DNA from: Escherichia coli
GTDB lineage: Bacteria > Pseudomonadota > Gammaproteobacteria > Enterobacterales > Enterobacteriaceae
DNA length: 64,000 nt
Strand: one strand, 5' to 3'
NCBI RefSeq assembly: GCF_030384885.1
Contig: NZ_CP128615.1
This document shows positions 3,090 through 64,000 of the stretch, in pieces (within the stretch, counting starts at the first letter, position 1; each line of letters starts with the position of its first letter). A model generated the notes under the pieces. The model made no database searches and was not told where the DNA came from. It saw only the letters and a list, made by a program, of their open reading frames with translations. Made by a program: the position numbers and the translations under genes.

Positions 3090-3130
3090 TCCCGTAATAA
3101 TTTCCGTGACGGAGACGACAGACATGAATG

Positions 3131-3192
3131 GGCTTTGTTGAATAAATCGAACTTTTGCTGAGTTGAAGGATCAGATCACGCATCCTCCCGAC
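3131..3192 (+). mobile_element. IS903 left-end fragment (62 bp)
   Basis: Identical to the first 62 bp of the intact IS903 copy at 23487 (GGCTTTGTTGAATAAATCGAACTTTTGCTGAG...); ends abruptly at the start of the IS3-family element. Confidence 0.8.
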
Positions 3193-3292
3193 TGGATTTG
3201 CCCCTATATTTCCAGACACCTGTTATCACTTAATGGAGTGACCCCGAGCCCGTAGACAAATCTGCCCTATAGTTTGAGCATAGGAGGAGTCT

Positions 3293-3577
3293 ATGGGCAC
3301 ATCACGTTTTACCCCTGAATTTAAGGAAGAGGCCGTCCGCCAGATCACCGAGCGGGGCTATTCTATTGCTGAAGTATCTGAACGGCTCGGCGTGTCGGCG
3401 CACAGCCTATATAAATGGCTCCGGGCTGTTAAGCCTGACAACAGTGGACAGCAGGCACAGGATTTACTGGATGCCAGAACAGAAATTCTCAGGCTGAAAG
3501 CACAGCTTAAACGCACTGAGGAAGAGCGGGATATTCTGAAAAAGGCAGCGCGGTACTTTGCAAGGGAGCCCGACTGA
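3293..3577 (+). CDS. IS3-family transposase OrfA (HTH)
   Basis: MGTSRFTPEFKEEAVRQITERGYSIAEVSERLGVS... typical IS3 OrfA with leucine-zipper-like C-terminus. Confidence 0.85.
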   Translation: MGTSRFTPEFKEEAVRQITERGYSIAEVSERLGVSAHSLYKWLRAVKPDNSGQQAQDLLDARTEILRLKAQLKRTEEERDILKKAARYFAREPD

Positions 3578-3624
3578 AGTATCGCTTTATCAACGATCAC
3601 CGTGAAATCTGGTCGATCGTTACA

Positions 3625-4212
3625 ATGTGTCGGGTCCTTAAGGTTGCCCGTGCCGGATTTTATGTCTGGCTCCATAACCCTGTATCTGCCGGAGAAAAGG
3701 ATAACCAGCGACTGCTGGAACTCATCCGCGACTCCTATACGCTGAGTGGTGGAGTTTACGGTTATCGCAGGGTTCATGGCGATCTTCGCGAAATTGGCGA
3801 AGTGTGCAGCAGAAACCGGGTTGCCAAAATCATGAGGAAAAACAGGATTCAGGCTATACATGGTTATAAAGTGCCACGCGGGAGCCGGGGACGACCGTCA
3901 CTGATAGCGCCTAATCACGTGCGGCGTGAATTTACTGTAGTGAAGCCCAATCAGGTGTGGGTCACCGACATCACCTACATCCGCACCTGGCAGGGCTGGC
4001 TGTACCTGGCAGTGGTTATCGATCTTTTTGCCCGTAATGTGGTGGGCTGGTCGATGAAGCCGACACTGTCGCGCGAGCTGGCACTGGATGCGCTGCTGAT
4101 GGCGGTCTGGCGACGTAAACCTGAAGAAAACGTCATTGTGCACAGCGATAGTAATAATGCCGATGTCAGTCTTTACCACCACTTAGTTTGCCGTTTAACC
4201 AGATTGGTGTGA
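3625..4212 (+). pseudogene. IS3-family transposase OrfB, 5' part, disrupted after the HSD motif by an IS110-family insertion
   Basis: Translation matches IS3 OrfB up to VIVHSD (about 4149) then runs into unrelated sequence and stops. Confidence 0.75.
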
Positions 4213-45181: not shown

Positions 45182-45673
45182 GTCTGTGTTGTAAAATGGC
45201 GCCGAAAGCCCGGCGTAGCCGGTTGCCGGGCTATAAATTCTGCCACCCTACCCCCTGCCCTGATTAGCCTTAACTCGCGAACAGCAATGAAGAAGTCAAA
45301 GTAATCCCTTTTAACCCCGGTGAGCGGGCTTTACGGCGTTTACGACGTAAAGGGCGTGATTTCCGGGGCCTAAGCGGCGGCAGCTTGCTGCTGACGCTTA
45401 GGGGGATGTTCATCAACTATTTCAGCGACACCAGGGAACTTAACACGGTAGCTGCAAAGCCCTAATCCCGCTCACCGCCACGCAGCTGCCGTACGTCCCC
45501 CACGGGGGTGCGCAGTGCTGCGCGCGGGAACGGCGGCCCGTCTGCGGGACGCGGCGCCGTACTGCGCGTTAGCGGCCGCACGCGGCCGGTTACGGGGGAC
45601 ACTCCGCCATACGACCAGCGACCCGCTGAGCTGCACAATCCACAGATAACACAAGCTACATACATGTCGATAT

Positions 45674-46245
45674 GGGAATCGGCCCACCTTGCCGGGCGCC
45701 GGTGCCGTGTGGAAATCCGCCCACCTTGCCGCGCGCCGGTGCCGTGTGGGAATCCGCCCACCTTGCCGCGCGCCGGTGCCGTGTGGGAATCCGCCCACCT
45801 TGCCGGGCGCCGGTGCTGTGTGGAAATCCGCCCACCTTACCGGGCGCCGGTGCTGTGTGGAAATCCGCCCATCTTGCCGGGCGCCGGTGCCGTGTGGGAA
45901 TCCGCCCACCTTACCGGGCGCCGGTGCCGTGTGGGAATCCGCCCACCTTACCGGGCGCCGGTGCCGTGTGGGAATCCGCCCACCTTACCGGGCGCCGGTG
46001 CTGTGTGGAAATCCGCCCACCTTGCCGCGCGCCGGTGCCGTGTGGGAATCCGCCCACCTTGCCGCGCGCCGGTGCCGTGTGGGAATCCGCCCACCTTGCC
46101 GGGCGCCGGTGCTGTGTGGAAATCCGCCCACCTTACCGGGCGCCGGTGCTGTGTGGAAATCCGCCCATCTTGCCGGGCGCCGGTGCCGTGTGGGAATCCG
46201 CCCACCTTACCGGGCGCCGGTGCTGTGTGGAAATCCGCCCATCTT
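45674..46245. repeat. Tandem array of about 15.5 copies of a 37-bp repeat (GAATCCGCCCACCTTGCCGCGCGCCGGTGCCGTGTGG with point variants)
   Basis: Contiguous head-to-tail repeats without spacers; downstream of a truncated repA paralog, i.e. in the position of an incC/incA-type iteron array. Confidence 0.85.
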
Positions 46246-46292
46246 CATGACAAAAATTTGTCAAATGACAGGCTCATGTGTGCTGATTTATG

Positions 46293-46595
46293 TCAGACGG
46301 GATTTTGCTTATCAATTATTGAGAACAGAAATTTTCCTGAATCATCAATACTATACTTAGCAAGTAAAGGTGTTTTCTCATTTATCTGCTTGAGTGCAGG
46401 ATCAAGGAAAGATCGTTTCAACTCTGCCAAGTTCTTCTGCTGGGATTCCGGTAAGACGAAACGGTCATTTAACCAAGCATGAGTAGTAACCCATAAGCCT
46501 GAAGATTTGAATTGAGCAAGACTTTCATAAAGGCGGATCGTCCGGGGATTTCGAAGACTGCCACAATCGCGGAGCGAGTAGGTGGTGAACTGGTT
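46293..46595 (-). pseudogene. C-terminal fragment of a second Rep_3-family RepA, truncated by IS1
   Basis: Minus-strand translation ...YSLRDCGSLRNPRTIRLYESLAQFKSSGLWVTTHAWLNDRFVLPESQQ... aligns with the C-terminus of the intact RepA at 54177-55043. Confidence 0.6.
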
Positions 46596-46610
46596 GGTAA
46601 TGACTCCAAC

Positions 46611-47114
46611 TTACTGATAGTGTTTTATGTTCAGATAATGCCCGATGACTTTGTCATGCAGCGCCACCGATTTTGAGAACGACAGTGACTTCCTGCCCAG
46701 CCTTGCCAGATGCTGCCTCAGATTCTGGTTATGCCGCTCAATTCGCTGCGTATATCGCTTGCTGATAACGTGCAGTTCTCCCTTCAGGCGGGATTCATAA
46801 AGCGGCCAGCCATCCGTCATCCATACCACGACCTCAAAGGCCGACAGCAGGCCCGGAAGACGCTCCAGCGTGGCCAGAGTACGCTCACCAAAGACGCGTG
46901 CCACCACCGTCCTGCACATCCTGCCATAGGCGTAAAATAACCAGCGCTGACGTGATTTAGCCCCGACGTAGCCCCACTGTTCGTCCATTTCCGCGCAGAC
47001 AATGACGTCACTGCCCGGTTGTATGCGTGAGGTTACCGACTGCGGTCTGAGTTTTTTAAGTGACGTAAAATCGTGTTGAGGCCAACGCCCATAATGCGGG
47101 CGGTTGCCCGGCAT
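46611..47114 (-). CDS. insB: IS1 InsB
   Basis: 167 aa, 95 percent-range similarity to the other insB in the window. Confidence 0.85.
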
Positions 47115-47308
47115 CCAACGCCATTCATGGCCATATCAATGATTTTCTGGTGCGTACCGGGCTGAGAGGCGGTGTAAGTGAACTGTAGCTGCCATGTTTT
47201 ACGGCAGTGAGAGCAGAGATAGCGCTGATGTCCGGCAGTACTTTTACCGTTACGCACCACGCCTTCAGTAGCTGAGCAGGAGGGACAACTGATGGAGATG
47301 GAAGCCAC
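47033..47308 (-). CDS. insA: IS1 InsA
   Basis: [30 protein letters not shown]... Confidence 0.85.
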
Positions 47309-47379
47309 TGGAGCACCTCAAAGACACCATCGTACACTAAATCAGTAAGTTGGCACCATTATCCGGCAGGCGATCTGGA

Positions 47380-49300
47380 TTATCGTCACGCTGTTAAATA
47401 TGTCGCGGTAGGGATACCCGTTACCGGATACCCCCCGCACAGATCCCGGCGTGCGCGATTTACGCACCGGGCTCCTGCCTCGGGTGTCTGGCGGTGAACC
47501 GCTCCACAGGCCATGGATGAAGAACCCGAACCCTTGGTAGCCATGCGGCTGCCAGTTTGTTTGCTTTCGTCCAGGTCGTATCATCCTTCTGGCTCCTGCG
47601 CCTGAGCGCCCGGCGCCAGAGGTTTGTTACGTGTGTCCTGAACTTCTGCATGGTGGGGAAGTTGCCCGGTACCGAGTGATAGTTCAGGTATCCCTGAACC
47701 ACTCTCCTGAGCCATTTTCCCTGTTCGGGGATTGAGTAATGCCAGCGCCTTCGCAGACCGTCTTTGATGGCTTTCAGAGTTGCCGTCATCCGATCCCGGC
47801 GGGTCTTTCGTATCAGCATGAACCTGCCGTTGCGATCTTTCCCGCTGATGTGCGTGAACCCGAGGAAGTTGAACGTTTCTGGTTTGCCTTTTCCCCTGAT
47901 GGCACGGTTTTCGGCAGCGAAGCGGCCGAACTCCATCAGACGGGTTTTCTCCGGGTGAACCGTGAGTCCGAACTCCCTCAGTCTGCGCTGCATGGCTATA
48001 CGGAAGCGCCGGGCATCGTATCGTTTGTCGAACCCGATGACGATGTCATCGGCGTATCTGACCATTACCACATTGCCTGTGGCATAGCGACGTCGCCACT
48101 GATGCGCCCACAGATCGAAGACGTAGTGGAGGTATATGTTTGCCAGCAGCGGTGAGATGACCGCACCCTGTGGGGTGCCTTCCTCCGTTGCTCGCCATTG
48201 ACCCTCCTCCAACGTCCCGGCTGTGAGCCACTTACGTATGAGCCTGATTACGCTCCGGTCGCCGATCCGATGCTCTGTGAACCTGATCAGCCATTCGTGG
48301 CTCACCCTGTCGAAGAACTGACTGATGTCGGCATCCAGTACCCAGTTTACGTTAGTGCGTACCAGCCCTGTGGCCAGTGCGTCCAGTGCATCGTGCTGGC
48401 TTCGCCCGGGTCTGAACCCGTATGAGAACCCCATAAAGTCGTTTTCATAGACTGCGTTCAGGATTTTCACCAGCGCATACTGGACGATCTTGTCCTCCAG
48501 CGAGGCGATGCCGAGCGGGCGTTGTTTTCCATCCGCTTTTGGGATGTAGTGACGCCTGCCGGGCTGCGCCCTGTAGCTGCCCTAATGTAGCCTCCGGTGC
48601 AGATCTGTTATGTTGTTCTTCATGTTTCCGGCGTAGTCCATCCACCTGATGCCATCCACTCCGGCGGCCGCTTTCCTGCTCAGGGAGAGGAATGCGGCTT
48701 CCAGTGCTTCGACTGTCAGCAGGTGGAACAATGCTGTAAACCGTTCTTTCTTCCGCTGCTTCGCAGCTTCCCGCACGCGTGACAGCCTCTGTGACATGCT
48801 TTCCCGGCTCTGTGTCCGGCGCATGTGTGGCTGTTCCGCGTTCCCCTTGGCCCCGCTCCTTCGCTCCACTGACTCCGCTCCTTTCGGGTTGTTCGCCTGC
48901 TTCGCCGCTACTATGAGCGAGTCCGACTTCTCCTCTCCGTACATCACCGGCTATGACTCCTCGTCTTCCCGGTGCGGGCCGTCTCCGACACTGGCAGATG
49001 GTCAGAGGGGAGATCTCCCGGTTCCCGCGTAGAGATCGTATTGACATGCCAGGGTCTCAGACCCCGCCGGGTCCATGTGGCACTCGCAGTATCGCACCCT
49101 ATGATGTTGCCTTCCGTTAACAGTACAACGTCGGCACCCGGTAATTTAATATACATTTCGTGGCTCAATGGCTGGCCTGTCAACACCCCTGTCAACGCTT
49201 CGCCCCATACCTCGCGGTATGCAACGCATGACTCGGGGACCTTGTGGATTGCTGGTCCTTCAATGGTCGGGGACTTTCACCCCTTGATCTCTACCGGTCT
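47380..49300 (-). mobile_element. Group II intron (bacterial, ORF in domain IV), boundaries approximate
   Basis: Encodes an intron-type reverse transcriptase/maturase; domain-V-like hairpin GAGCCCGGTGCGTAAATCGCGCACGCCGGG near 47458-47490 just 3' of the ORF; a GTGCG 5'-consensus-like motif is seen but is too close to the ORF to be the certain 5' end. Confidence 0.55.
47460..48947 (-). pseudogene. Group II intron reverse transcriptase/maturase, split by a frameshift near 48470-48600
   Basis: N-terminal ORF 48582-48947 (domain 0: ...AAAGVDGIRWMDYAGN...) and C-terminal ORF 47460-48470 (RT motifs incl. VRYADD and maturase X-domain VQGYLNYH) are in different frames. Confidence 0.7.
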
Positions 49301-49311
49301 CCCGGTGAACA

Positions 49312-49327
49312 CTGTATGTATAACCAG
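49312..49327 (+). promoter_or_regulatory. LexA (SOS) box upstream of the umuD-like gene
   Basis: CTGTATGTATAACCAG, one mismatch from CTGT-N8-ACAG, about 25 bp upstream of the RBS. Confidence 0.5.
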
Positions 49328-49352
49328 TAAAATTAGAGTGTCAGGAGGAAAG

Positions 49353-49784
49353 ATGAAACTACAACTTTTCAGCACCGGGAAAGAACTCCCGCCACAGGCC
49401 CATCCATTGTTTGCCGATCTGGCCAGCTGCGGTTTTCCCAGCCCTGCTGCTGACTATGTCGAGTCCGATCTGGATCTCCATGATTACTGCATACGGCATC
49501 CGAGCGCGACGTACTACCTGCGTGCCAGCGGAGACAGCATGGCCGACGGCAGTCTGTACAATGGCGATCTGCTGGTTGTGGACAGTGCTGAAAAGCCGCG
49601 GCACGGCGATATCGTTGTCGCCAGCATGCAGGGGGAGTTTACGGTGAAACGGCTTCTGCTGACGCCGCGACTGACGCTGCAGCCCATGAATGCCTCCTGG
49701 TCGCCGATTTATCCTGATCCCGACGAGCTGGATATCTTTGGCGTCGTCACGCATATCATCCACCGCCCGAGGGAGATGTACTGA
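49353..49784 (+). CDS. umuD: UmuD/MucA/ImpA-family SOS mutagenesis protein (S24 peptidase)
   Basis: ...[20 protein letters not shown]...[22 protein letters not shown]...[10 protein letters not shown]; the 270-aa track ORF is an upstream read-through. Confidence 0.85.
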
Positions 49785-51055
49785 TGTTTGCCCTGGCCGA
49801 TGTGAACAGCTTCTATGCCAGCTGTGAACGTGTTTTCCGCCCGGATTTGAAAGGAAAGCCGATAGTCGTCCTGAGCAACAACGACGGGAATGTAATCGCT
49901 CGCAGTGCCGAGGCGAAGCCCTGGATCAAAATGGAAACTCCGTGGTTTCAGATAAAAAACGAAAGATACCCGGAAAAAATATATGCGTTTTCAAGTAACT
50001 ATGAACTTTATGCCTCGATGTTGGCGCGCGTGATGAACAGCCTGGAGGAACTGGCCCCCAGAGTGGAACAGTATTCAATTGATGAGATGTTCCTCGATTT
50101 GACCGGCGTGGAGCACTGTATGGAGCTTGAGGACTTCGGCCGGCAGCTGCGTCAGCACGTGTATGACTGTACCCACCTGACCATTGGCGTGGGCGCCGGA
50201 CCAACGAAGACCCTCGCAAAATCAGCCCAGTGGGCCTCAAAAGAGTGGAAACAGTTTCGTGGCGTACTTGCTCTGACCAGGGGAAATCCGCAGAGAACGC
50301 GGAAACTGCTTTCACTGCAGCCGGTTGAAGAAATCTGGGGGGTGGGTAACCGTATTGCACGCAAGCTGAATGTACTGGGCATTAAGACCGCGCTCGATCT
50401 CGCCCTGACGAACCCGGCCTTCATCCGCAAAAATTTTTCTGTGGTCCTTGAGCGAACGGTACGGGAACTGAACGGGGAAAGCTGCCTTTCGCTTGAGGAA
50501 GCCCCTCCGACGAAACAGCAAATTGTCTGCAGCCGCAGTTTTGGCGTGAAGATCACGGAGTACGAGTCACTCCGTCAGGCTATCTGTCAGCACGCAGAGC
50601 GGGCCTCTGAAAAACTGCGTAAAGAGCACCAGTATTGCCGGCATATTTCCGTTTTCATCAAAACGTCTCCGTTCGCCATTAAAGAGCCTTACTACGGCAA
50701 CGTGGCTACGGAAAAACTTCTTACACCCACTCAGGACACCAGGGACATCATTGCAGCCGCTACAACGGCTCTGGAGCGTATCTGGAGGGATGGGCACCGG
50801 TATGCCAAAGCCGGAGTTATGCTGAATGACTTCACCGGCTCCGGCGTTTCGCAGCTGCAGCTGTTCGACGAACGCCCGCCACGCCCTTACAGTGCTGAGC
50901 TGATGAAGGTTCTGGACGGGATCAACAACTCAGGGCTGGGTAAAGTATGGTTTGCGGGGCGGGGTATTGCCCCGGAATGGCAGATGAAACGGGAGATGCT
51001 TTCTCCTGCTTATACGACACGATGGTCAGATATTCCTTCAGCGAAACTGGCGTAA
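49784..51055 (+). CDS. umuC: UmuC/MucB/ImpB-family Y-family translesion DNA polymerase
   Basis: 423 aa [41 protein letters not shown]...; start overlaps umuD-like stop. Confidence 0.9.
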
Positions 51056-51059
51056 AACT

Positions 51060-51140
51060 TTGGCGATTTCACCTTGAAATTCTCAGCCTAAACTGCCTAA
51101 TTACAATAAGTTAGATGTGAAATCGCCATGGCGAAATTAT
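51060..51140. promoter_or_regulatory. P1-type partition site parS
   Basis: Heptamer ATTTCAC/GTGAAAT and hexamer TCGCCA/TGGCGA boxes flanking an AT-rich (IHF-like) core, immediately downstream of parB. Confidence 0.6.
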
Positions 51141-52114
51141 TGACTCAAATTTCTGTCAAGGACCTCGTTGATAGCCTTGTCCAGTTCATCCTGAATCACT
51201 TTTGACATACGGCTAAACTCATAAGTCAGCGTACGCCCTTTCACACGCTTACGCGCGAACTTGTCCTTTTCTTCAAAAGACCAGAGTGGGGAAACCACTG
51301 ACTTTTCCTTGGGAGATGGATCTATCAATGCCTGAGATGCCTGAGAAATCAGCTTCAGTATACTGGCTTTCTGTTCGTCTTCTGGTCGCTCGCCTTCACT
51401 CAAAATTGCATCGAGCTGAGCTGATACAGACTGAATGAGTTCTTCAGGCGTTAATCCCTTTTCACTGAGTTTTTCATTAACTTCTAAAAGAAGTTTATAG
51501 TCACTAAACGATAGCTCCGACTGAACCGGGAACAGAGAAATCAAGTCTTGCGGTACGGCCGCCGCCTGCAGCGCCCTGGTAACTTTAGCTTGAGATAACC
51601 CCTCCAGTTCAGCAATTTCCTTTTGATTAAATCCGGACTCTTTAAGAGCGATCAATCTCAGGCCAATCTCCCGAAGATTATGTTCTTTAGCTGTCTGGAT
51701 ATCTTTAGCCAGTTGGCGAGCTTCATCAGCTGATAAATGCTCTTCGGTAACCATTACATCAAGGCCTGTACGGACAAAAATTGCTGAGGCTCGCCGTCTT
51801 GAACCATCCAGTATCTCAATCCTTTCACTTTGCTTAATACCAATACAGGGAAAGAACTGCTGAAACTTAATCGTCTGGATAATGGATTTCAGGGATTCCC
51901 TGGTCAGTGCAAGTTGATCTCTTCCGTTGTTTTCCTGGTTTACGAAGGTCTTACTTTCAACTTCAGATGCAGGCACCCGAACAAACCTGAACGTTACCTT
52001 CCTGCCGGTTTTTAAGGTAAATACCTGGCTTCTACCGGTGTCCGTCATTTCCGCAATTGACGCCTGGGTATTTAACTGTCTGCCGATGGTTTTTCTTTTC
52101 TCATTCGACATCAC
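51137..52114 (-). CDS. parB: P1-type partition protein ParB
   Basis: 325 aa; ...EILDGSRRRAS...GLSQAKVTRALQAA...RFARKRVKGR... strongly resembles P1 ParB. Confidence 0.9.
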   Translation of the reverse strand: MMSNEKRKTIGRQLNTQASIAEMTDTGRSQVFTLKTGRKVTFRFVRVPASEVESKTFVNQENNGRDQLALTRESLKSIIQTIKFQQFFPCIGIKQSERIEILDGSRRRASAIFVRTGLDVMVTEEHLSADEARQLAKDIQTAKEHNLREIGLRLIALKESGFNQKEIAELEGLSQAKVTRALQAAAVPQDLISLFPVQSELSFSDYKLLLEVNEKLSEKGLTPEELIQSVSAQLDAILSEGERPEDEQKASILKLISQASQALIDPSPKEKSVVSPLWSFEEKDKFARKRVKGRTLTYEFSRMSKVIQDELDKAINEVLDRNLSQ

Positions 52115-53316
52115 ATACCTCCGTTAGTACGAATGAACTCGATGCGATCAAAGACTGCCTTCGCAAAGTCTTCCGCTGCTGATTTTGCGCTTTTTAGTGC
52201 CTCTGTACTTCCATCATAGGTTGCTGGATTTGCTGAAATAACTGTGTCAAAAGTCTCCCCACAACGTTCGAAACCATCCAGTCTTGGCAGAACCATGTCT
52301 AGCATATCGGCACCGAAAACCTCTTTGGCCTGACTATGGCAAATTTTGTGATCAGACTTGTTCAGGATCTTGGACATGAAGCCGACATTACCGATGAGAT
52401 TGCAGGTGTGCCCATCCATTTCGATGGAATCTATGAGGGCAGGGAGGCTGGCCACAAACTTCAGGGAAGAATGAAAATCAACCGTCGCCGGTGGAAGAGG
52501 GGTCAACATCAGGTCTGCCGCCCCAATGCAGTTTTTCAGGAACGCATCAAGGTGAGGACCACTATCAAGGAAAATAAAGTCGTAGTCATGCTGGAGCTTG
52601 TCGATAATGTTCTCTTTAAGCACCGCATGAATATTTTTCCCTGGCAGATGTTCTTCACACAATCCCTTCCAGCCTTCAGCAAGGAATGCATCGTCAATGG
52701 AAGCGGGGATTACATCAACACCAGGGATAATAGACGGTACTATAAAATCGGAAAGTAATTCTTCACGAGACACGTTCTGGAGCATGGCCTGAGCAGCCGT
52801 ATTTTCAACCAAGCCCACTGAATTCTCATGGCTCAGGAACATTGTCAGAGATGCCTGCGGATCGAAATCGATGGCCAGAATACGCAGGTCTTCGAACAGA
52901 AGCTGAGGATGAGCTCGAAAAGCATGTGATAATGAAGCGGTAGAAACTGTCTTGGAACCACCACCTTTAAGATTACATACAAAAATCGTAAAGGCTTTAT
53001 CGAAGCGATCCCTGTACTTCGGTACTTTACGATGGTTATACAGATCGATGACATTCTGAATCGTCATCGCGTATTTCATCGTATTACCAGAAGGTTTCTT
53101 TTTAAAAATGTAGCCACCGGCTTCCATTTCGGACACAGCATACTCAACACTGCCTTTACTGAGCTTAGGCAGCTTATACAGAGCGGCTTTGCTGTATTCC
53201 TGATAGAACTCGGTAAGCTTCAATTCCTCTTTTTGCTGTCGGATACTTTCGCTCAAAGATGTCAGAAGCTTACCTGCACGTGTAGCGACTTTCCGTAACT
53301 GCTCAATATTGTCCAT
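52111..53316 (-). CDS. parA: P1-type partition ATPase ParA (type Ia)
   Basis: 401 aa; Walker A-containing NLKGGGSKTVSTASLSHA and N-terminal DNA-binding extension as in P1 ParA. Confidence 0.9.
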   Translation of the reverse strand: MDNIEQLRKVATRAGKLLTSLSESIRQQKEELKLTEFYQEYSKAALYKLPKLSKGSVEYAVSEMEAGGYIFKKKPSGNTMKYAMTIQNVIDLYNHRKVPKYRDRFDKAFTIFVCNLKGGGSKTVSTASLSHAFRAHPQLLFEDLRILAIDFDPQASLTMFLSHENSVGLVENTAAQAMLQNVSREELLSDFIVPSIIPGVDVIPASIDDAFLAEGWKGLCEEHLPGKNIHAVLKENIIDKLQHDYDFIFLDSGPHLDAFLKNCIGAADLMLTPLPPATVDFHSSLKFVASLPALIDSIEMDGHTCNLIGNVGFMSKILNKSDHKICHSQAKEVFGADMLDMVLPRLDGFERCGETFDTVISANPATYDGSTEALKSAKSAAEDFAKAVFDRIEFIRTNGGM

Positions 53317-53707
53317 TTATCACCTCATGACGTTTTTTGTCATTTTGAACAAAAAGTGTCATGTTGCAAGAAAAAAATCATATTGTTTTGATTTCGCTCT
53401 CAACAGAAGGGGGATGAAGCTCGACGGGCGTGCTACTAAATCACACTGCAGCAACACGCAGACGCACTTTTGACCATCAACAGCAACTCATACAAAAGGG
53501 CTTTGAGAAAGGTATTCAACTTGCAAGACAGGAGAGTCATTCAGAAGGATTCTGATTTTAGTTACGACCAGTGCAATGCTGAGCCTTATGTATCAGCGCT
53601 CGCCGCAGCCATGTAACCGAGCGTAGCGAGCGAACTGGCGAGGAAGCGAAGAGGAACCGTTCCGGCAGATAGCTCTTACGCTCAGCACAAGAAGAGTTTT
53701 CCATCCT

Positions 53708-54125
53708 CTGTGGGAAACAGGTCAACTTTAATGGACGCTCCGGACTATGGGAAACAGGTCAACTTCGCGGACGGCCCGGACTATGGGAAACAGGTCAACT
53801 TCACGGGCGGCCGGGAGTGTGGGGAACAGGTCAACTTCGCGGACGGCCCGGATTATGGGAAACAGGTCAACTTCGCGGGCGGCCGGGACTGTGGGAAACA
53901 GGTCAACTTTGCAGACGGCCCGGACTGTGGGAAACAGGTCAACTTCGCGGGCGGCCGGGAGTGTGGGGAACAGGTCAACTTCGCGGACGGCCCGGACTAA
54001 GGGAAACAGGTCAGCTTCTCGGACGGCCCGGACTATGGGAAACAGGTCAACTTCTCGGACGGTCGGGAGTGTGGGAAACAGGTCAAGTTAGGCAAGCACT
54101 ATGGGAAACACAGCAAGTTCAGTAT
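53708..54125. repeat. Array of about 11 direct 36-bp repeats (TGGGAAACAGGTCAACTT core); iteron/copy-control locus downstream of repA
   Basis: Regular 36-bp period read directly; located between repA stop and parA start. Confidence 0.85.
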
Positions 54126-54176
54126 CCCCCCATATGTCAGCAACAAACTAAGGGGGGAGGAAATAAAAATTACAGA

Positions 54177-55043
54177 CTATTGTTTTTTATCAAGAAAATT
54201 AAACAGCAAGCGACCATCTTCTTCAGTGGTATATGTTACCTTTAATGGCGTCTTCTCATTAATTTTCTTCAGAGCAGGTTCCAGGAAGGTACGCTTCATT
54301 TCAGCAATATTGTTTTTCTGCGAGGCAGGGAGCATAAACCTTTCACATAACCAGTCATGTGTGGTGATCCAGACACCAGTGCTCCGGAACTGACACAGGC
54401 TTTCATAAAGCCGGATGACACGAACACTATTAAGCTGGCCACAGTCATAGAGAGAATAGGTAGTGAACTGGGAGGTTAAGCCGACCAGGAATGGCATGAC
54501 CTTGTAGTTAAATTCAATCTGCCAGGAACCCCGGCCTCGCTTCATTCCTGCTTCAGCCAGCCACGGACGTTTAACTTCTTCAAACTCACCTTCTTTTGGA
54601 TAAAAGGTAACCGTTGATTCGCCCAGAGCATTTACCCCAGCCTTCACATCACGACTGGCGACAGACGTAGCGACATTGAAGTATTTGACGTAATCGGAAA
54701 CGCTGATTTTGAAGAGCGGCAATACGTCAGAGTCATCTTCCTGGCTGTCATTAAAATAGGCCTGCATGAGGCATAACCACAGCACACGTTTTGCCTGAAG
54801 AGGCAGGTAATATGCAGCTTCGGTCAATTCGTTAGATTGCTTTATACTGGCGCGTTTTTTAAACGTTTTAGTAGCTGGCAAGAGTGCTTGAGTATCCATT
54901 TCAATGCCTATGGGTAAATTTTTACCCACCCATAATGACAGTGAAAACAGAAATTGCAAGCTATCGCGATACTTATCCACCGGAAAAATCTGCACTTTAT
55001 CCACAAGTGGATAATTGAGAACTGAACTTGACCTCTTTCCCAT
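54177..55043 (-). CDS. repA: Rep_3-family replication initiator RepA (RepE of F-like)
   Basis: 288 aa; ...IKQSNELTEAAYYLPLQAKRVLWLCL...VIRLYESLCQFR... parallels F RepE. Confidence 0.85.
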   Translation of the reverse strand: MGKRSSSVLNYPLVDKVQIFPVDKYRDSLQFLFSLSLWVGKNLPIGIEMDTQALLPATKTFKKRASIKQSNELTEAAYYLPLQAKRVLWLCLMQAYFNDSQEDDSDVLPLFKISVSDYVKYFNVATSVASRDVKAGVNALGESTVTFYPKEGEFEEVKRPWLAEAGMKRGRGSWQIEFNYKVMPFLVGLTSQFTTYSLYDCGQLNSVRVIRLYESLCQFRSTGVWITTHDWLCERFMLPASQKNNIAEMKRTFLEPALKKINEKTPLKVTYTTEEDGRLLFNFLDKKQ

Positions 55044-55260
55044 AGCTTGTTGATGCGTATCCCATAGCTTGTTGACACAAAACCCACTGATACGTGATTA
55101 ATTTCCCATATTATGTTTACCAGTTGCCCATACAGGCCCCCTCTCAGGCCGCACTGTACGCGGCTTTCAGGCTCCCTAAAAGATGTAAAATAAAGAAAAA
55201 GAATAAAAAAGTACTTTATAAAAATATGCCCGTGGATAAGTGGATAACCCCGAGGGGAGG
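55030..55260. promoter_or_regulatory. Probable replication origin: short repeats over the repA start, AT-rich stretch, two tandem DnaA boxes (55231-55249)
   Basis: CCCATAGCTTGTTGA x2, A/T-rich 55170-55230, GTGGATAAGTGGATAAC. Confidence 0.5.
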
Positions 55261-55772
55261 TGATTTTTCAGGCATTGAGCGTAAGCAGAATTTATAAGTT
55301 TTGTTCCCTGGTGCTTCCTCGCTCACTCGGGGCTTCGCCCTGTCGCTCGACTGCGGCGAGCACTGCTGGCTCGATCATATCCGTGGCCGGAAGATACTAC
55401 TCCTCCCCCGAGTCGCTCTCCAGAGCCGGCTACAGCGAGACAACCCGCACGAAGATTTCTATCGTCCCTGCAGACATATTCGAATCGTTTTTATTAACCC
55501 TGGCTTCCGTCGTGACAGAACACTACGTCCTGTAAAAGGGGGACTAAGGCCCCTGAATCACACACCTGAATAATGCGGAGTTTTACGATAATGTCATTGC
55601 TGGAAACTTTCCTGACCGCTTCTCAGGGGGCAACAATCCTGTTCCTTGCCATGCTGATCTACTGGCAAAAGCGATAAATCCAAGCGGGCTGGCCTTTGGC
55701 CAGCTTCGCTGTATAAGGGGAAAAATGCGGCATATCCAGACATTTCACTAGGCAATTTGAATTCAGATATCT

Positions 55773-56063
55773 ATGCTTGGGATCCGGTCAACAGGAGGTA
55801 ACAAGATGAAACTTGAAACTATACAGATAGATAATACCGTAAGGAGTGGTCTTAATTCTTTCACTGACGGGGTGATTATTCGTGATACAAAGGTATTGAT
55901 CACGCTCAATCTCCCGGATGGACAGAAAACCACTATTGAGGGGGAATGGCGGCATATGTCGGACGCCAACAGGTTGTCAGAACGTATTACGATGCTTCAG
56001 CATGCGATCTATGAGCAGTATGAGGAATACAGAGCAGATATTCCCGTCAGCTGGTCCAGATAA
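55773..56063 (+). CDS. Hypothetical protein (probable start at internal MKLETIQ, preceded by AGGAGG)
   Basis: ORF only; no recognisable motif. Confidence 0.3.
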   Translation: MLGIRSTGGNKMKLETIQIDNTVRSGLNSFTDGVIIRDTKVLITLNLPDGQKTTIEGEWRHMSDANRLSERITMLQHAIYEQYEEYRADIPVSWSR

Positions 56064-56120
56064 CGTCTGACAGACCTCCCCGGCGAGCAGGACGTTCGCC
56101 AGCATCATTCTCCTAAGTAC

Positions 56121-56899
56121 TTAAATATTCCCTTTCAGCATGGCTACCGCATCCGCTTCGGGCATCTGAAACTGAACTCGATGCCGCGCAGCAACATCAA
56201 GTGCGAACACCTTCGTATAGACTTCCGTCGAGCTAATCGATTTGTGGCCCATCAGGCTCTGCAAAACCTTCAGTGGTATGCCGGCATACAGCACATATGC
56301 ATCGCGTAGGAGTGGCGGAACGTATGCGGGGTGACCGGCACCGAGAATGTCACCCCGTCGACGGCGGCCGCTTCAACCGCTTCGCCAATCCAGGTCCGTA
56401 CTGTCCGGTCGGTGATGTCCCAGATGCGGGCTTTCTCTGTTCTGCCGGTACGCTTGTTGCGTCTTTCCAGCGGAATTTTCAGGGTGGCCACCATCATCTG
56501 CAGCTGGCTGACGTAGTGGTGATCGGAAAGCGGAACCAGACGATGAGCCTGGCTACCGGCGGGAGCTCGGCCGGCTGTCCTGGCCGCTTTTTCGGTGCGC
56601 TGCTTAAGCGTGGCCAGCTGCACGAACGGATACGGTGGCACCAGCGAAAAATCCCCCCGGGTCAGCGCCAGCGCCTCGTTGATACGTGCGCCGGTGTTCC
56701 AGAGGGTTGCCAGCAGCATCTTGCGGTGCAAATCGGGCACATAATGGAGCAGGGCGCTGACTTCCGGTGCCAGCAGGTATTTCGGTAGTTCATCTTGAAC
56801 GAGCGCCATCTGGCGCAGGGCCAGCGCGGCGGGATAGTCAATGGCCACCGGCATTTGCGCCGGCTGCTGCGGGTGAGAATATGATAAGAGGCCGCTCAT
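56121..56899 (-). pseudogene. Tyrosine site-specific recombinase (ResD/XerD-like resolvase), frameshifted
   Basis: N-terminal 209 codons (track 56270-56899) end at ...TFRHSYAMHM; the conserved C-terminus ...LYAGIPLKVLQSLMGHKSISSTEVYTKV... continues in another frame (2-bp shift near 56285). Confidence 0.7.
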
Positions 56900-57639
56900 T
56901 GGTTTGACATTCCATCAGGTATCACTAATTGATTCCACTCCCTGTTGCGGGTAGCTTCAGCAGCGCGCAGGGCTCTTTCGCGCCTCCAGACTTTACGAAA
57001 CACGGAAACTGCAGACCATTCATCATGACCTGTAAGACGTGTTTCGGGCATCCCGGTTGCCTTGCGCAGACGGACGGCAAGAATGACAGCGTTGATGCCC
57101 AAGCGCGTGAACTGATACTGCCGTTCCCTGAAATAGTCCTTATGCCAAGGAGGGTCGGAGTATTCGGCGGCATATGCAATTGCCCTGTGGGCCTCATCCT
57201 GGAGCACCGGCAGTTCACGGATGCGATACATAAGACGTGGCTCTAAAGTCCGCCAGTCACCGGAGACATCGATCAGATTCAGTTCAGGGTAATTCGTGAC
57301 AGCTTTTCTCTCAGGCTGGGGGGCATCATCATCCTGGCCGTCATCCGTCACAACCCGGAAACAACCCTCAGCATACCGTTCAAGCATGAATACCAACTCG
57401 GTGGCAATGTAATGCAGTTCCTTTTTCATTTTATCTTCTGACGCCTGTCTCTCACGCTTAAGCGTGAAATAATGTGTCAGCCAGATGCCAGTGAGTGTTA
57501 TACCCCCAGTAAGCAGGCCAGTGATAAGCCCGGTTGCCACGTTTCCCCAGATCCCCGCCCCTTGATTAATCAGCTGTACGGAAACCGGATGGGATGTCGC
57601 AGCAACTATACTCTCAGTTGCGGCCTGTATATCAGTCAT
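56896..57639 (-). CDS. Hypothetical membrane protein (247 aa)
   Basis: Predicted TM segment GIWGNVATGLITGLLTGGITLTGIWL; start overlaps the recombinase gene. Confidence 0.4.
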   Translation of the reverse strand: MTDIQAATESIVAATSHPVSVQLINQGAGIWGNVATGLITGLLTGGITLTGIWLTHYFTLKRERQASEDKMKKELHYIATELVFMLERYAEGCFRVVTDDGQDDDAPQPERKAVTNYPELNLIDVSGDWRTLEPRLMYRIRELPVLQDEAHRAIAYAAEYSDPPWHKDYFRERQYQFTRLGINAVILAVRLRKATGMPETRLTGHDEWSAVSVFRKVWRRERALRAAEATRNREWNQLVIPDGMSNQ

Positions 57640-57689
57640 TGATCATTTACCCCTTTATATTCCTGAGAAATCCCGCCCTCTGTCCGTAG

Positions 57690-58040
57690 TCAGCGGCCGG
57701 CAGCCAGCTCTTCAGCCAGTTTCACAAACCTTTTGTGCTCAGTCTGCAGGTAATGGCTGTAAATCCGGGCATCACGTTCTGTCAGTCCGGATGGATTGCC
57801 GGTGAAGTAACGTTGCAGCACCGCAATACAGTGATTGTAGGTATCGAGATCATATTCCCAGTTTCCCAGCTCACCGGCCGCATCCAGTTCCTGGCGAAAC
57901 TGCTCGTATTTACGGAGCAGAATGCCAAGACCTAATTCTGTTGCAGCATAAAGATTATTTTCTCCTGGCGCGGAAATCGCATTACGGATTTTTTCAAAAG
58001 CATAACTGAAATCATTTCTCTCATTGAATGCAGTAAACAT
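57690..58040 (-). CDS. Hypothetical protein (116 aa)
   Basis: ORF only; co-oriented with and 50 bp upstream of the membrane protein gene. Confidence 0.4.
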   Translation of the reverse strand: MFTAFNERNDFSYAFEKIRNAISAPGENNLYAATELGLGILLRKYEQFRQELDAAGELGNWEYDLDTYNHCIAVLQRYFTGNPSGLTERDARIYSHYLQTEHKRFVKLAEELAAGR

Positions 58041-58610
58041 GTCCTTTCCTCAGTTGAATAGTTAGCCGTGCAATTTTACCACACCTCAATCATCGTCAGA
58101 TGAGTGCCACTCTGTCGCGACAGTGACTTTCACGAGAGTGATTTTCACATACTAAAATAATAAGCAGCCATATAACAACGTAATTAAATTACCTGACGGC
58201 CGCTCTGGCCGGATCCGACTTTTATGTTATTCCACAGTTTCCGGAAGTGTACCACGCACACGGAATAACCACAGCGCCCTTTCAGGGTGGTGAGCGGCCG
58301 GTCACGGGGCAGGGGAGGGGCACAACATATATGGTCACTGACAGCTGGAAACACCGCTACATCTTGTGTTTCCGGGCCGCTGCGCGCCGGCGGGGCTGAA
58401 TCAGATCCGGAACTGGTGGTTTTCGGATCTGCGGTGGAGAAATGAGAAAACAGGATATGCGCAGCATATCCACATGCCACGCATCTGCATAGGGCAGACA
58501 TACGCATATGTCAGTCATCTGCATATGTTACACCTATACAGACCAGTCCGGCAGGCATATACTGCACATATGTACTCACACATCATGCATGATCAGCCGG
58601 AGGAACATCC

Positions 58611-58841
58611 ATGCGCACAGTTTCGATATTTAAAAACGGCAATAACCGCGCCATCCGTCTGCCCCGGGACCTGGATTTTGACGGCGTCAGCGAGCTGGAG
58701 ATCGTCCGGGAAGGGGACAGCATCATTCTGCGTCCCGTCCGGCCGACCTGGGGCTCGTTCGCGCAGCTGGACAGGGCCGATCCGGACTTTATGGCGGAGC
58801 GTGAGGATGTGGTCAGCGATGAAGGACGCTTTGAGCCATGA
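58611..58841 (+). CDS. vapB: VapB/VagC antitoxin, second copy
   Basis: Protein identical to the copy at 2446; promoter region related but diverged. Confidence 0.9.
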   Translation: MRTVSIFKNGNNRAIRLPRDLDFDGVSELEIVREGDSIILRPVRPTWGSFAQLDRADPDFMAEREDVVSDEGRFEP

Positions 58842-58931
58842 AGAAAACCTGGATGCTCGACACTAACATCTGCTCGTTCATCATGCGCGAGCAGCCGGCA
58901 GCGGTGCTGAAGCGCCTGGAGCAGGCGGTGC

Positions 58932-58932
<1 letters not shown>
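58838..58932 (+). pseudogene. vapC: vapC, truncated after about 31 codons by an IS21-family element
   Basis: MKKTWMLDTNICSFIMREQPAAVLKRLEQAVL then IS terminal sequence TGTCAACGCCACGATG. Confidence 0.85.
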
Positions 58933-60440
<1,508 letters not shown>

Positions 60441-60604
60441 AAAACTGTCAGCGCTGCGAGGACGAAGAAAGTATTACGGCTAAAGCCGTAATACCTCCCC
60501 ATCCAGCTTCAAGCTATGTAGAAACTTATGTGGGTAGAGCAGTCCCGACAGGGCAGTACCGCATTGACAGGCCGTCAGGGCCACTTACGAGCTTGTATGA
60601 CAAG

Positions 60605-60642
60605 GGGGGCCGTCTGGATATAGCGAATTATTGTACGGTAAG
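60605..60642. repeat. Tn3-family 38-bp inverted-repeat-like sequence
   Basis: GGGGGCCGTCTGGATATAGCGAATTATTGTACGGTAAG, 30 of 38 matches to the IR at 34373 and in the same orientation. Confidence 0.45.
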
Positions 60643-61764
60643 CCTTTTTTGAACAGCCTTACCTATTGCTATAGAGGGGAACTCCTACGTTATACGCCGC
60701 TTTCAGGGGATTCGACCTTAATGAGACAACTCAAATATGATCGACAACTTAAACGCGATAGTTGCTGATAAAATCAATCCATTACGCGTTTCAATTGATT
60801 AAATAATGCACTTAATGTACAAAAATTCCCGATCTCAAAACTGAACCCTAAAGATACCAGGCATCTCCCCCAGGAAGCGCCCTCATGCGTTTTCCTGTTC
60901 CGCCCCTGCCACCTACCTTCTGTTTCATACTTGTTGTATTATTGTTTTTGTTTTCAATCCCCAAGGAGACGTCGCTATATGACTGTGCGGGAGACAGAGG
61001 AAAACATTGAACAAATCTTCCCTGAGCTTTCGAACTTAATTGATATTATTAATAAATGGCTTTCCCATGGAAACATTGATCCTGAACTGGCACACTTCAT
61101 CATTTATCTTCTTGATTACCTAACCACCACACACAAAAGCATATAAAAATTTTCCTTGCACATCCATTTTTTTGCGAATATTATTATTCCTGCTGAATAT
61201 GATTCAATATCGCACGCTACTCATCCATCCCAGGATAATGAGTACATAGGTTGAAGTTTCAACACCCCCATTACGGGGGTGTTTTTTTTACCAATAAACA
61301 CAAATCACACCATCGCCATACTCTGTTTGCCAGACATCGATTGGTAAATATGCGTAACTCGCTATAATACAAAAAGAAAAATCAGAACCAGAAACCAGTT
61401 TCCAGATAAAAAACACCCTCCCGAAGGAGGGGACAGACACATTCATATTTCCCAAAACAGGAATTTTTATTTTTATGACGCATTAATGAAGTTACTTCAT
61501 CTCCAGTAGATTAACTTCATTTAAAGTGGCGATCAATCATATTTATTACGACTCTAAACTATTACAACAACCACAATAAGATATCACCTCAAATATAAAA
61601 GATAACTCTTACAAAAACGTTCCGAAAACAAAAAATACAGATAAACACCAATAAAAAACAGAAAACTCTTACACATTTAAAGATGGTAAAATAATATAGA
61701 ACTGTTAGTCTAATGGAGAAGGCGCATCTGATTCAGAGCAATCTATTGCGAAGAATCAGAGTAA

Positions 61765-61806
61765 CAGGGCCCCATGATATAATCATGGGGCCCTGTTGCT
61801 TTTACA
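61765..61806 (+). terminator. Strong intrinsic terminator-like hairpin
   Basis: 14-bp perfect stem CAGGGCCCCATGAT/ATCATGGGGCCCTG with 3-nt loop followed by TTGCTTTT. Confidence 0.45.
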
Positions 61807-62184
61807 GATGTAAAAACGACCAATCATTTAACATCTGTTATCGGCACCGCCCCGGACGGGTTCGGCGCAAATATGGTATGGTACCAGCCCGGCAATTCAC
61901 CTGCCGTGCAATCTGACGAAGCAGTACCGGCGTATGCAGATATATCGTCCAGACATATCTGCCGCATTCAGGCGGTGAGTAAAGCCTTCTCTCTCAAAAG
62001 AGGAGCAACAGTTATCCACAGATTCTGGGGATAACTGCGAAAAGAATATGTGCCAGGAAAGTCGGCTCCCGGGAAAAAGACCGCTGGCGGCGCAGCTGCT
62101 GGATACGAAAGCTGAGCTGAAAGGATCCCGGGAGGACGTCCGTAAACTTCAGTCCCTGGCCCGTCATGACGGGAAGGTGAAAAA

Positions 62185-62826
62185 GTGAATGCGGATACCT
62201 GGACCCGCCTGCAGGCCTTCCGACATGCTCTGGAGCTGACTTCCTGTGAGGCTTCTCTCACCGCCGGGTATGATCACCTGAAGGATTTCCCGGCCGGTTG
62301 CAGCGAGCTGGCCAGCCAGACGCTGACTGATTATCTGACGGAAGACGGCAGCAACCTGTACTCCTGTATTGTCGGTATGCAGTGGGATAATGGTCCTGGC
62401 AGATACGGCCACGTCATTGCCGCCCCTGCCAGGGACTATATCGACCTGACCCTTGATCAGTTTCCAGGCTATCATAACCGGATTGTGGCAGAGCCCGTTG
62501 AGTCCGGCGGACAGCTCGCGGCAGACCTCAACAGGGAGCCTGCCATCAGTACAGCTGATGGAATAGTGGCCAGCGCATCAGATAAGGTTAATTACATTAC
62601 TGAACAGAAAAATCGCCAGCCAATGGTGATCATTACAGAATGTTACAAGCTGATCAGAATAACGGCAAGATTTATACCAATGTGCCAGTCATCTCAACTC
62701 TTCCAGCACCAGGTATTCCCTCGCTTATTTATCATTTCAGACGTTGGCTCCTGCAGTTTGTCCAGGAACACCTTAGATCGTTTAGCTACTGACTGGAAGG
62801 TGACACTGTCCATCCTGTCGCTATAG
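62185..62826 (+). CDS. Hypothetical protein (GTG start), translationally coupled to a 46-codon upstream ORF (62049-62189)
   Basis: GTGA start/stop overlap; no recognised motifs; 3' part overlaps a convergent ORF so extent is uncertain. Confidence 0.3.
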   Translation: MNADTWTRLQAFRHALELTSCEASLTAGYDHLKDFPAGCSELASQTLTDYLTEDGSNLYSCIVGMQWDNGPGRYGHVIAAPARDYIDLTLDQFPGYHNRIVAEPVESGGQLAADLNREPAISTADGIVASASDKVNYITEQKNRQPMVIITECYKLIRITARFIPMCQSSQLFQHQVFPRLFIISDVGSCSLSRNTLDRLATDWKVTLSILSL

Positions 62827-64000
62827 GGCTTGATATAAACCTGGCAGGCAAGGGATCTGGTTAACTCCTTTCCTTCCATAAAGTGTTTGAAGATCCAGAG
62901 ATACGTATCCACAAGCTCCAGCCCTGTACTCTGTGTCCCCGACTGGAAGACCTGCGGTTCAGCTGGTATTTCCGTTACATCCATGACCGGTGTCTGCGCA
63001 GCAGTGCCTGTCATCAGGATCCTGTCACTCTTTCGACCGACAGCTTATGGCATACAGTTGGGCTCGTAAGATCCAGAGTCAATAACTGACAGGGTTTATT
63101 CTGTCATCCTCCGGCAACAAAGGCATATACGATATTCACTTATTTTGTCGGCCCAACGGCTTTTTACAGTAGCTCGTTTTGCCCAACTGATGCTACAGCT
63201 CTTTGGTTTGCTTCATCACGGATATCAGCTCCGACACAGGCACAGCTGACTGGTTGCAACGTCTGCACTTCTCTGGACCTGAAACGTCAATTATCAGGAT
63301 TCTGACGATTAGTCTTAAGACTGTCGGTAAATTAAGTGATGCCAGTTGTCAGGATATTCATGGAGCCAGTCTGCATGCGCCTCTGGCGTTGAGACAAACA
63401 TATGAAGTGTATTTCGGATATGACTGTACGCTCAGGAAGTACGGCAGATTCCGTCAAAAATTACCTGTAAAGACAGACTTCAGAAAAAACAGTGCTCGCC
63501 GCAGACCGGTGACCGGGCGAAGCCCGCGAACCGGCGAGGAAGCGCAATATATCTGTAGTTACAGTGAGCAGGTACGCCCTGAAGCCTTCATAATCGGTAG
63601 TGTATGCTGTTTTTCCGGAATGATTTATCCACATATCCAGAGGCCCGATCCAGTAAATAGATCCATGAATGATCAATAAAGGATCCATTAAAGATCCCCA
63701 TATCGCTACAAACCTTGTTACTCATGGGCCGGGACCACGATCACATAAGCTGTGGCATGTTACTGATAAACTGTAATATGCTAATGATAAGCTGTATTCA
63801 GTAATGCATATACTGAAGTAAGCTAATGACATAAACTATGGTCAGTACGCCAGACTCTGTTGTTAAATACAGACTGCAGGTTTTTCTTCAGTCAGTTAGC
63901 GGGGCTCTGACACACGATTTGCTGTTTATTCTTTTACTGTCCACAGGCAGGAGGCTTTCTGGAAAACGAAAATTCAGACATCAAAAAACTGTTCGGCGAG

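Follow-up and report, generated by a model that had tools for sequence, protein, structure and literature searches.

The window analysed here is a 64,000-nucleotide (nt) stretch of Escherichia coli DNA (contig NZ_CP128615.1), and all positions below are those of the whole window. Between positions 56121 and 58040 it carries two small genes and a resD-type recombinase gene, all on the minus strand. The first gene, P116 (57690-58040), encodes a protein of 116 amino acids (aa; WP_000493378.1). The second gene, P247 (56896-57639), lies 50 bp downstream of it and encodes a 247-aa protein (WP_000129823.1), and its stop overlaps the resD start in an ATGA motif. In the RefSeq annotation, both products are hypothetical proteins occurring in hundreds of plasmids, and the product of an intact resD is a 258-aa site-specific integrase (WP_000015958.1). 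An original prediction, made from the letters of this DNA, had described the two co-oriented genes upstream of a ResD-like recombinase gene with an out-of-frame C-terminus next to a replicon, and this layout was confirmed. It was found that the two genes occupy a hypervariable slot between an rfsF-like site and resD, in which first and second genes recur with changing partners. I tentatively propose that they form an addiction or abortive-infection-type cassette.

The region is part of an IncR plasmid backbone, with repB and its 36-bp iterons, parAB, resD, and vagCD in the published order (PMC7707992, PMC9412624). The repB gene (54177-55043, minus strand) encodes a member of the RepE-type initiator family (E 4e-41). 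Its iterons (10.4 copies) lie at 53711-54086, and parA and parB also flank it. Descriptions of the IncR backbone give vagCD, resD, repB, parAB, umuCD, and retA, and leave the two intervening genes unmentioned (PMC7707992, PMC12310702). P116 and P247 are adjacent and co-oriented with a 50-bp spacer, as in the two-gene transcription units of type II toxin-antitoxin systems. No minus-strand terminator was predicted inside 56121-58040, and the slot appears to be transcribed jointly with resD.

Upstream of P116 lies a cassette-specific leader (58041-58156, minus strand), which moves with P116. The leader holds two tandem 15-bp repeats at 58112-58141 (plus-strand sequences CTGTCGCGACAGTGA and CTTTCACGAGAGTGA). 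Each repeat contains a GTGA-N3-TCAC palindrome, and both look like operators. A candidate extended -10 element (TGn-TAAAAT) was spotted in the leader by eye only, and a simple promoter scan called no minus-strand promoter directly upstream of P116. An Rfam search of 54000-59500 found no RNA antitoxin and no other known RNA.

Is the gene pair a fixed part of the DNA upstream of resD? I fetched 74 loci encoding ResD relatives, one genome per species. The slot counts below refer to 45 of them, from 45 Enterobacterales species, which have a full-length ResD orthologue (60-100% identity) together with upstream DNA. Conservation of the DNA is high over resD, drops to only 1-3 loci across 56860-58156, and rises again in the non-coding DNA of 58157-58450. 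The conserved non-coding block (58157-58401) is common to ResD loci whose cassettes are unrelated, and in 34 of them homology stops at exactly 58157, directly after ...GGTTATATGGCTGCTTATTAT, and the motif ...GGTAATTTAAC-N4-GTGGTTATATGGCTGCTTATTAT precedes this border. The sharp end may mark a second site, an operator, or a transcription start. The right border of the slot lies inside resD, about 13-17 codons in. These first 13-17 codons (56860-56899; loci L015-L070) vary between loci and co-vary with the type of the cassette.

The conserved block ends at an rfsF-like core (58402-58431, site B), which is 245 bp upstream of the cassette border. Site B is an inverted repeat with the 11-nt arms CAGATCCGGAA (58402-58412) and TTTCGGATCTG (58421-58431) and an 8-nt spacer. 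Nearly all of the 45 loci have this core upstream of their cassette, its outer arms being conserved and its centre variable. Thus, like rfsF-type sites, it has inverted arms around a central region and adjoins resD. Its position also agrees with that of rfsF, which has been located between vagCD and resD in IncR plasmids (PMC9412624). I call the core rfsF-like, since it is its position and behaviour that point to rfsF.

The slot genes are co-oriented and belong to many unrelated families, almost none of which match anything in Pfam or PADLOC searches. P247-family genes occupy the slot in 13 of the 45 loci. A HEPN_RiboL-PSP-like family (c2; 259-294 aa, with an RNDLVH motif; E 1.5e-5 and 6.7e-5) was found in 7 loci, ccdA and ccdB with their sequence-cluster relatives (c3 and c4) in 6, a family with signal peptides (c5) in 6, and a pair of 132-aa and 111-aa proteins in 4-5. 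Singletons occupy the remaining loci. The original prediction had stated that F-type replicons carry ccdAB at this position. That holds, since CcdA and CcdB (Pfam E 9e-26 and 2e-30) are encoded directly upstream of a ResD orthologue in locus L017, and ccdAB is one of many occupants. Every P247 relative examined in Enterobacterales sits in the rfsF-resD slot, including the chromosomal copies of Kosakonia and Pectobacterium. Defence-type genes surround these chromosomal copies.

First and second genes of the slot are combined freely. Eight unrelated small genes are found in first position ahead of the P247 family, and P116 holds that position in only 3 of the 13 loci. In all 13, a co-oriented gene lies directly upstream of the P247-family gene. 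P116, in turn, precedes four unrelated second genes. Besides P247, these are the HEPN-like c2, found in Pantoea and in an E. coli plasmid of the IncI type (with 96.6% identity between its P116 and that of the window); a 202-aa family (c15), found in many E. coli plasmids; and a 154-160-aa family of Shewanella and Ferrimonas. In the last two genera the genes are 2-4 bp apart, resD is not present, and the two members of the pair have diverged to matching extents (57% and 55% identity). In every case, within the resD slot or elsewhere, a P116 relative comes first in a closely spaced two-gene unit. When the window is compared with the IncI-type plasmid, the DNA homology ends at about 57666, within the 50-bp spacer. 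Comparison of the P116 and P247 profiles with every other cassette cluster by hhalign gave no match with a probability of 20% or more. Outside Enterobacterales, PDC-S67 members (the family of P247, described below) lie behind two HEPN proteins in an operon (L091), beside a TIR_2 gene, or alone (L094).

What kind of proteins are encoded? P116 is an acidic (isoelectric point 5.35), soluble protein with no hydrophobic segment, and its structure was predicted to be a four-helix bundle with a mean predicted local distance difference test (pLDDT) score of 94.6. P247 has an acidic N-terminus of 28 residues, one hydrophobic helix (about residues 29-56), and then lysine and arginine residues, an arrangement that suggests an N-out, C-in topology. 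Its cytoplasmic part was modelled as a four-helix-bundle domain with pLDDT above 95 from residue 50. Residues 47-236 of P247 match the PADLOC hidden Markov model (HMM) PDC-S67 (E 3.6e-45), covering positions 6-195 of the 203 in the profile. PDC-S67, a single-gene phage-defence candidate, comes from a set of 145 candidates obtained by a guilt-by-embedding approach, each being chosen because a member sits within a BREX, DISARM, or type I restriction-modification (RM) locus (Payne et al. 2024 preprint).

Searches of P116 and P247 against Pfam and NCBIfam gave sub-threshold noise only, and a sequence search of solved structures in the PDB found no relative of either protein. The earlier claim that the pair has no recognisable motifs therefore stands for Pfam and NCBIfam and fails for PADLOC. 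The remote-homology and structure checks proposed along with it divided in the same way, with predicted four-helix bundles lacking Pfam, NCBIfam, or PDB relatives on the one side and the PDC-S67 match of P247 on the other. Neither P116 nor P247 was found to contain a domain related to known toxins or antitoxins. A PHROG search with both proteins returned families of unknown function and one weak holin match. A holin identity of P247 was rejected, as that match is weak (E 0.013, residues 1-73) and the protein has a cytoplasmic domain of 190 residues. P247 was not assigned to the HEPN nucleases either, for it has no HEPN match in Pfam and its helical domain lacks a conserved histidine.

In an exhaustive profile search, the P247 family came to 986 cluster representatives, most of them about 200-220 aa long. 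A phage origin of P247 was rejected, as only 3 of the 50,697 phage records searched contain a distant relative. With 148 proteins the P116 family is small, and it was found in Enterobacterales, Shewanella, and Ferrimonas. Both cassette genes are under purifying selection, the ratio of nonsynonymous (dN) to synonymous (dS) substitution rates being 0.16-0.30. At the same loci, dN is 0.35-0.77 for the cassette, and resD next to it has values of 0.06-0.27. A nearly unchanged P116-P247 cassette is present on about 890-916 PLSDB plasmids. No paper mentioning PDC-S67 by name, WP_000493378.1, WP_000129823.1, or WP_000015958.1 was found in a literature search, nor was a description of an rfsF-resD cassette slot with two combinatorially occupied positions or of the hub behaviour of P116. 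The cassette is thus common yet uncharacterised, and one of its proteins, P247, is already catalogued as a defence candidate.

It is tempting to regard P116-P247 as an addiction or abortive-infection-type two-gene cassette with promiscuous partners, and I favour this explanation, although I would put it at slightly less than an even chance. The effector role would fall to P247, held in the inner membrane by its single helix with the four-helix-bundle domain in the cytoplasm, and its toxicity would come from an action at the membrane. P116, small, acidic, and cytosolic, would keep P247 neutralised or under control, and it may be a promiscuous hub that serves other effectors too, including the HEPN-like one. 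Such a cassette may stabilise the plasmid or act against phages. Cassettes seem to be exchanged between plasmids, with breakpoints at the end of the conserved block near rfsF, in the intergenic spacer, and in the first 15 or so codons of resD.

Several observations favour a conflict-type function. The slot is shared with the validated addiction module ccdAB, and a toxin-like, HEPN-like family is an alternative occupant; HEPN is a classic toxin domain. P247 bears the PDC-S67 label, and members of its family have HEPN, TIR_2, and chromosomal defence-type neighbours. The cassette genes diverge fast, and they outlast the decay of resD, as in the window and in a widespread E. coli plasmid group described below (L009-L011). 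The roles of effector for P247 and neutraliser for P116 are favoured because P116 repeatedly leads closely spaced two-gene units with different effectors, which resembles the promiscuous antitoxins of toxin-antitoxin networks. The operon-like layout and the high abundance of the cassette in PLSDB were counted as further support.

The original prediction had suggested that the pair could be a novel toxin-antitoxin or abortive-infection system. A conflict-type role is plausible in the light of the ccdAB and HEPN-like occupants, the PDC-S67 match, and the HEPN and TIR neighbours, but an obligate pair it is not, given that P116 accompanies the P247 family in 3 of 13 loci. The conserved pairing of type II toxin-antitoxin systems is lacking, as P116 has four kinds of partners and P247 has eight. 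This weakens the case for a toxin-antitoxin mode and does not exclude it, because partner swapping has been documented for type II toxin-antitoxin networks, including ones with single-pass membrane toxins (PMC10440598). Other points also weigh against the proposal. No DNA-binding fold is recognisable in P116, the P247 relative of L094 has no co-oriented upstream gene, and the slot occupants with signal peptides (c5) do not fit a toxin-antitoxin model. The PDC-S67 signal could arise from a mobile rfsF-resD module that landed in an RM, BREX, or DISARM locus. Moreover, first and second genes would mix just as freely if the two positions held independent cargo.

This last point leads to the best-surviving alternative, that P116 and P247 are independent cargo in one recombination hot spot. 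P247 would then act alone, for example as a single-gene defence protein, as the PDC-S67 label implies, or as a membrane protein, and P116 would be an unrelated small protein with no toxin/neutraliser relation to it. I consider this rather unlikely. It is true that a P247 family behind eight unrelated small genes, a P116 ahead of four unrelated genes, and a recombination breakpoint inside the 50-bp spacer (about 57666) are what it would lead one to expect. The solitary relative in L094, the single-gene entry in PADLOC, and a slot that also houses secreted proteins among many unrelated families agree with it as well, and profile comparisons revealed no hidden homology among the partners. Yet P116 relatives always lead a tight two-gene unit, even off the slot, as in Shewanella and Ferrimonas, where the genes are 2-4 bp apart and diverged in step. 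One of the P116 partner families is HEPN-like, and a co-oriented gene precedes the P247-family gene in 13 of 13 Enterobacterales slot loci. These three observations argue against independent cargo.

The resD gene of the window is a pseudogene (56121-56899, minus strand) of the ResD-type tyrosine recombinase, which has 258 residues when intact. It is split into a 209-aa open reading frame (ORF; 56270-56899, minus strand), which matches positions 2-140 of the Pfam Phage_integrase family (PF00589), and a 57-aa ORF (56121-56294, minus strand), which matches positions 140-168. The assignment to ResD was supported by 85-93% identity to ResD orthologues across Enterobacterales plasmids, among them the fragment of F origin that cloning vectors carry, and the intact copy also matches XerD/XerC-type NCBIfam models. 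Alignment to intact 258-aa copies (WP_000015958.1) revealed a single 2-bp CA insertion at 56292-56293. The frameshifted product continues to Met202, followed by 7 wrong residues and a stop. His192 and Arg195 are kept, while His218 and the nucleophile Tyr227 are pushed into the other frame. Thus, the HxxR motif, the histidine, and the nucleophilic tyrosine are not joined in one polypeptide, and the out-of-frame C-terminus of the original prediction amounts to the loss of the catalytic Tyr227.

Could the insertion be a sequencing or assembly artefact, the locus being an ordinary intact IncR backbone? It is unique among some 2,100 copies; none of the about 2,114 PLSDB plasmids with the 76-bp stretch matches it without the 2-bp gap. 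It is also a 2-bp event within otherwise identical sequence, being the sole difference from NZ_CP136605.1 over 46003-58415. However, there are zero indels in 1-2233, 2236-4632, and 58404-64000 relative to the nearest references, so that the CA insertion is the only indel across about 22.6 kb, and for this reason I do not regard the assembly as error-prone. In independent plasmid records, the broken IS21-family genes close by have the same sequence. Spontaneous mutation normally produces tandem duplications such as CA to CACA. Hybrid rfsF junctions, likewise unique, are found in this plasmid, and resD decay is not rare elsewhere, with fragmented resD matches in about 8 of the 74 loci and also in L009-L011. 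An artefact is therefore improbable. As the sole indel in about 22.6 kb, next to IS21-family genes identical elsewhere, the insertion is better explained by a private mutation than by a general assembly error, and I regard it as probably genuine. The frameshift is most likely a real loss of function that ends resolution by the plasmid's own ResD.

The E. coli plasmid group L009-L011, which is widespread, has a degraded resD behind intact cassette genes. In these plasmids, resD (8097-8848) has frameshifts and an internal stop, and the P116 homologue and the 202-aa gene are intact. This P116 variant was found on 614 contigs, beside a CBASS-like SMODS/S_4TM pair. A C-terminal fragment of ResD (residues 144-255, 93% identity) is identical in L071-L076, which are assemblies of unrelated phyla (Desulfosporosinus, Aquimarina, cyanobacteria, Alicyclobacillus, and Aeromicrobium). 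I take this fragment to be, most likely, a leftover of an F-derived bacterial artificial chromosome (BAC) or fosmid vector in the assemblies.

A second rfsF-like core (site A) was found at 2234-2263, near the other end of the window. It is followed by vapB and vapC ORFs of intact length (2446-3089), whose sequence is 99.8% identical to the IncR reference. The parental sites are CAGATCCGGAACTG followed by CCTTTTTTCGGATCTG in the IncR plasmid of L002, and CGGATCCGGTTTTG followed by GTGGTTTTCGGATCTG in the IncF-type plasmid p14EC033d (L089). Site A reads CGGATCCGGTTTTG followed by CCTTTTTTCGGATCTG, with an IncF-type left half and an IncR right half. Site B reads CAGATCCGGAACTG followed by GTGGTTTTCGGATCTG, with an IncR left half and an IncF-type right half. 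The two sites are thus directly repeated, exact reciprocal hybrids of the L002 and L089 sites. In both, the switch point comes after ...TG in the centre, where strand exchange takes place in sites of this kind, and the flanks are 99.8-99.9% identical to the respective parents. Neither hybrid junction occurs in PLSDB. These results are consistent with the window representing a whole IncR plasmid of about 56 kb put into an IncF-type plasmid by site-specific rfsF x rfsF recombination. Homology breaks and module switching at rfsF have already been reported, including in IncI1, IncF, and IncR plasmids (PMC9412624, PMC8004404). Both the bounding rfsF-like site and the rfsF cointegrate go beyond the original prediction.

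As the window looks like an rfsF fusion, the possible meaning of the resD frameshift changes. An active ResD would be expected to resolve the cointegrate. The frameshifted resD is the only one in the window, with no second copy able to complement it, and the integrase encoded beside the IncFIB-type rep gene of L089 is only 47% identical to ResD. The frameshift may thus lock, or stabilise, the IncR::IncF fusion.

An apparent crossover in the core centre was also seen in Kosakonia, within chromosomal islands rich in defence-type genes. There, L003 compared with L004 and L005 (position 6895) has the same cassette and the same rfsF-like right half, joined to different left halves and left flanks. 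In the window, the IncF-type flank beyond site B carries vapB and a truncated vapC (58611-58981, plus strand). This vapC is cut at 58981 by an IS21-family remnant with broken istA and istB (58838-60417), a region that is 100% identical, and unannotated, in several E. coli and Shigella plasmids.

Taken together, a still broader claim can be formulated: the rfsF-resD segment would be a dedicated recombinase-linked cassette-exchange platform, common to IncR, IncF, IncI, and other Enterobacterales plasmids as well as chromosomal islands. It would carry dozens of uncharacterised two-gene conflict modules, of which ccdAB is merely the studied example. P116 would be a new antitoxin-like hub for at least four unrelated effectors, including P247 (PDC-S67), and the lost resD would have frozen the IncR::IncF fusion. 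As a joint claim this is doubtful. It is very improbable that the proteins of the cassette assist or regulate ResD/rfsF recombination, whether in its resolution or its directionality: their apparent co-transcription with resD through the ATGA overlap, their position between the recombinase gene and its site, and the co-variation of the first 15 or so resD codons with cassette type would suit such a role, but ResD is 60-100% conserved while the cassettes are mutually unrelated (ccdAB, membrane, secreted, HEPN-like), P116 and P247 relatives are found without resD, and cassettes persist where resD is degraded.

A few other features of the IncR part were noted. An 88-aa ORF (55797-56063, plus strand), convergent with resD and annotated as an 85-aa protein (WP_000764642.1), is kept in IncR plasmids, and its sole match is a PHROG of unknown function. 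The stretch 55300-55400 is moderately conserved in 7-12 ResD loci. It resembles the region downstream of the ColE1/pUC origin (CTTCCTCGCTCACT...GCTGCGGCGAGC) and is possibly a primosome-assembly-type site. A 37-bp tandem repeat (45673-46245; 15.5 copies, 93% matches) lies in the IncR-related part, and its copy number is unlike that of the reference plasmid.

In Klebsiella and E. coli, IncR and F-type plasmids rank among the main vehicles of antibiotic resistance. This exact cassette is present on about 900 sequenced plasmids, and both genes have been skipped in backbone descriptions. If P116-P247 is indeed an addiction or abortive-infection module, it would aid plasmid persistence and add a family of membrane-acting effectors with a promiscuous partner. 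The slot could also be mined, as most of its occupants have no Pfam or PADLOC match and share the position with ccdAB and HEPN-like genes. The two rfsF sites, reciprocal hybrids of each other, provide a base-level example of the fusion of resistance plasmids, and the resD frameshift suggests a simple route to stable fusions.

Among known systems, the ccdA-ccdB-resD operon of F with its rfsF site is similar in the order of the site, two small genes, and resD, and the ResD orthologues are 85-93% identical. The cassette of the window lies in the identical position, and ccdAB fills the slot of 6 of the 45 species. In contrast to the F operon, the resD of the window is frameshifted, and P116 and P247 have no sequence or profile similarity to CcdA or CcdB. 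Since P247 is predicted to be membrane-anchored, unlike CcdB, gyrase poisoning by P247 is not expected. The match of P247 to PDC-S67 (E 3.6e-45) is exceeded by those of distant relatives, which score 3e-69 and 2e-60. PDC-S67 is listed as a single-gene candidate, whereas the P247 of IncR is a diverged branch whose Enterobacterales members always lie behind a small first gene. The two-gene units of the PanA/PanT and NetFlax type II toxin-antitoxin systems (PMC10440598) also have a small soluble first gene combined with many unrelated second genes, some membrane-anchored and some nuclease-like, and also recur in different contexts. P116 differs from their antitoxins, being a plain predicted four-helix bundle and not a Panacea/DUF4065, helix-turn-helix (HTH), or ribbon-helix-helix (RHH) protein. 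The HEPN-domain toxin or abortive-infection modules (RiboL-PSP-HEPN, MAE_28990, and MtlR-type) are linked to the cassette in two ways: HEPN-like proteins are alternative P116 partners in the slot, and true HEPN proteins lie ahead of the PDC-S67 member in L091.

The recombination sites resemble dif/cer (XerCD), loxP (Cre), and the switching known at rfsF, with inverted arms around a variable centre and reciprocal crossovers inside that centre; the comparison of the window core with published rfsF is one of position and behaviour, not of sequence. Finally, the slot recalls integrons, in which a variable gene segment likewise adjoins a conserved tyrosine recombinase gene and its site. In contrast to integron cassettes, those of the slot end without attC-like repeats, lie between the site and the recombinase, and run into the recombinase gene, and the borders of the slot look like homologous-recombination breakpoints.

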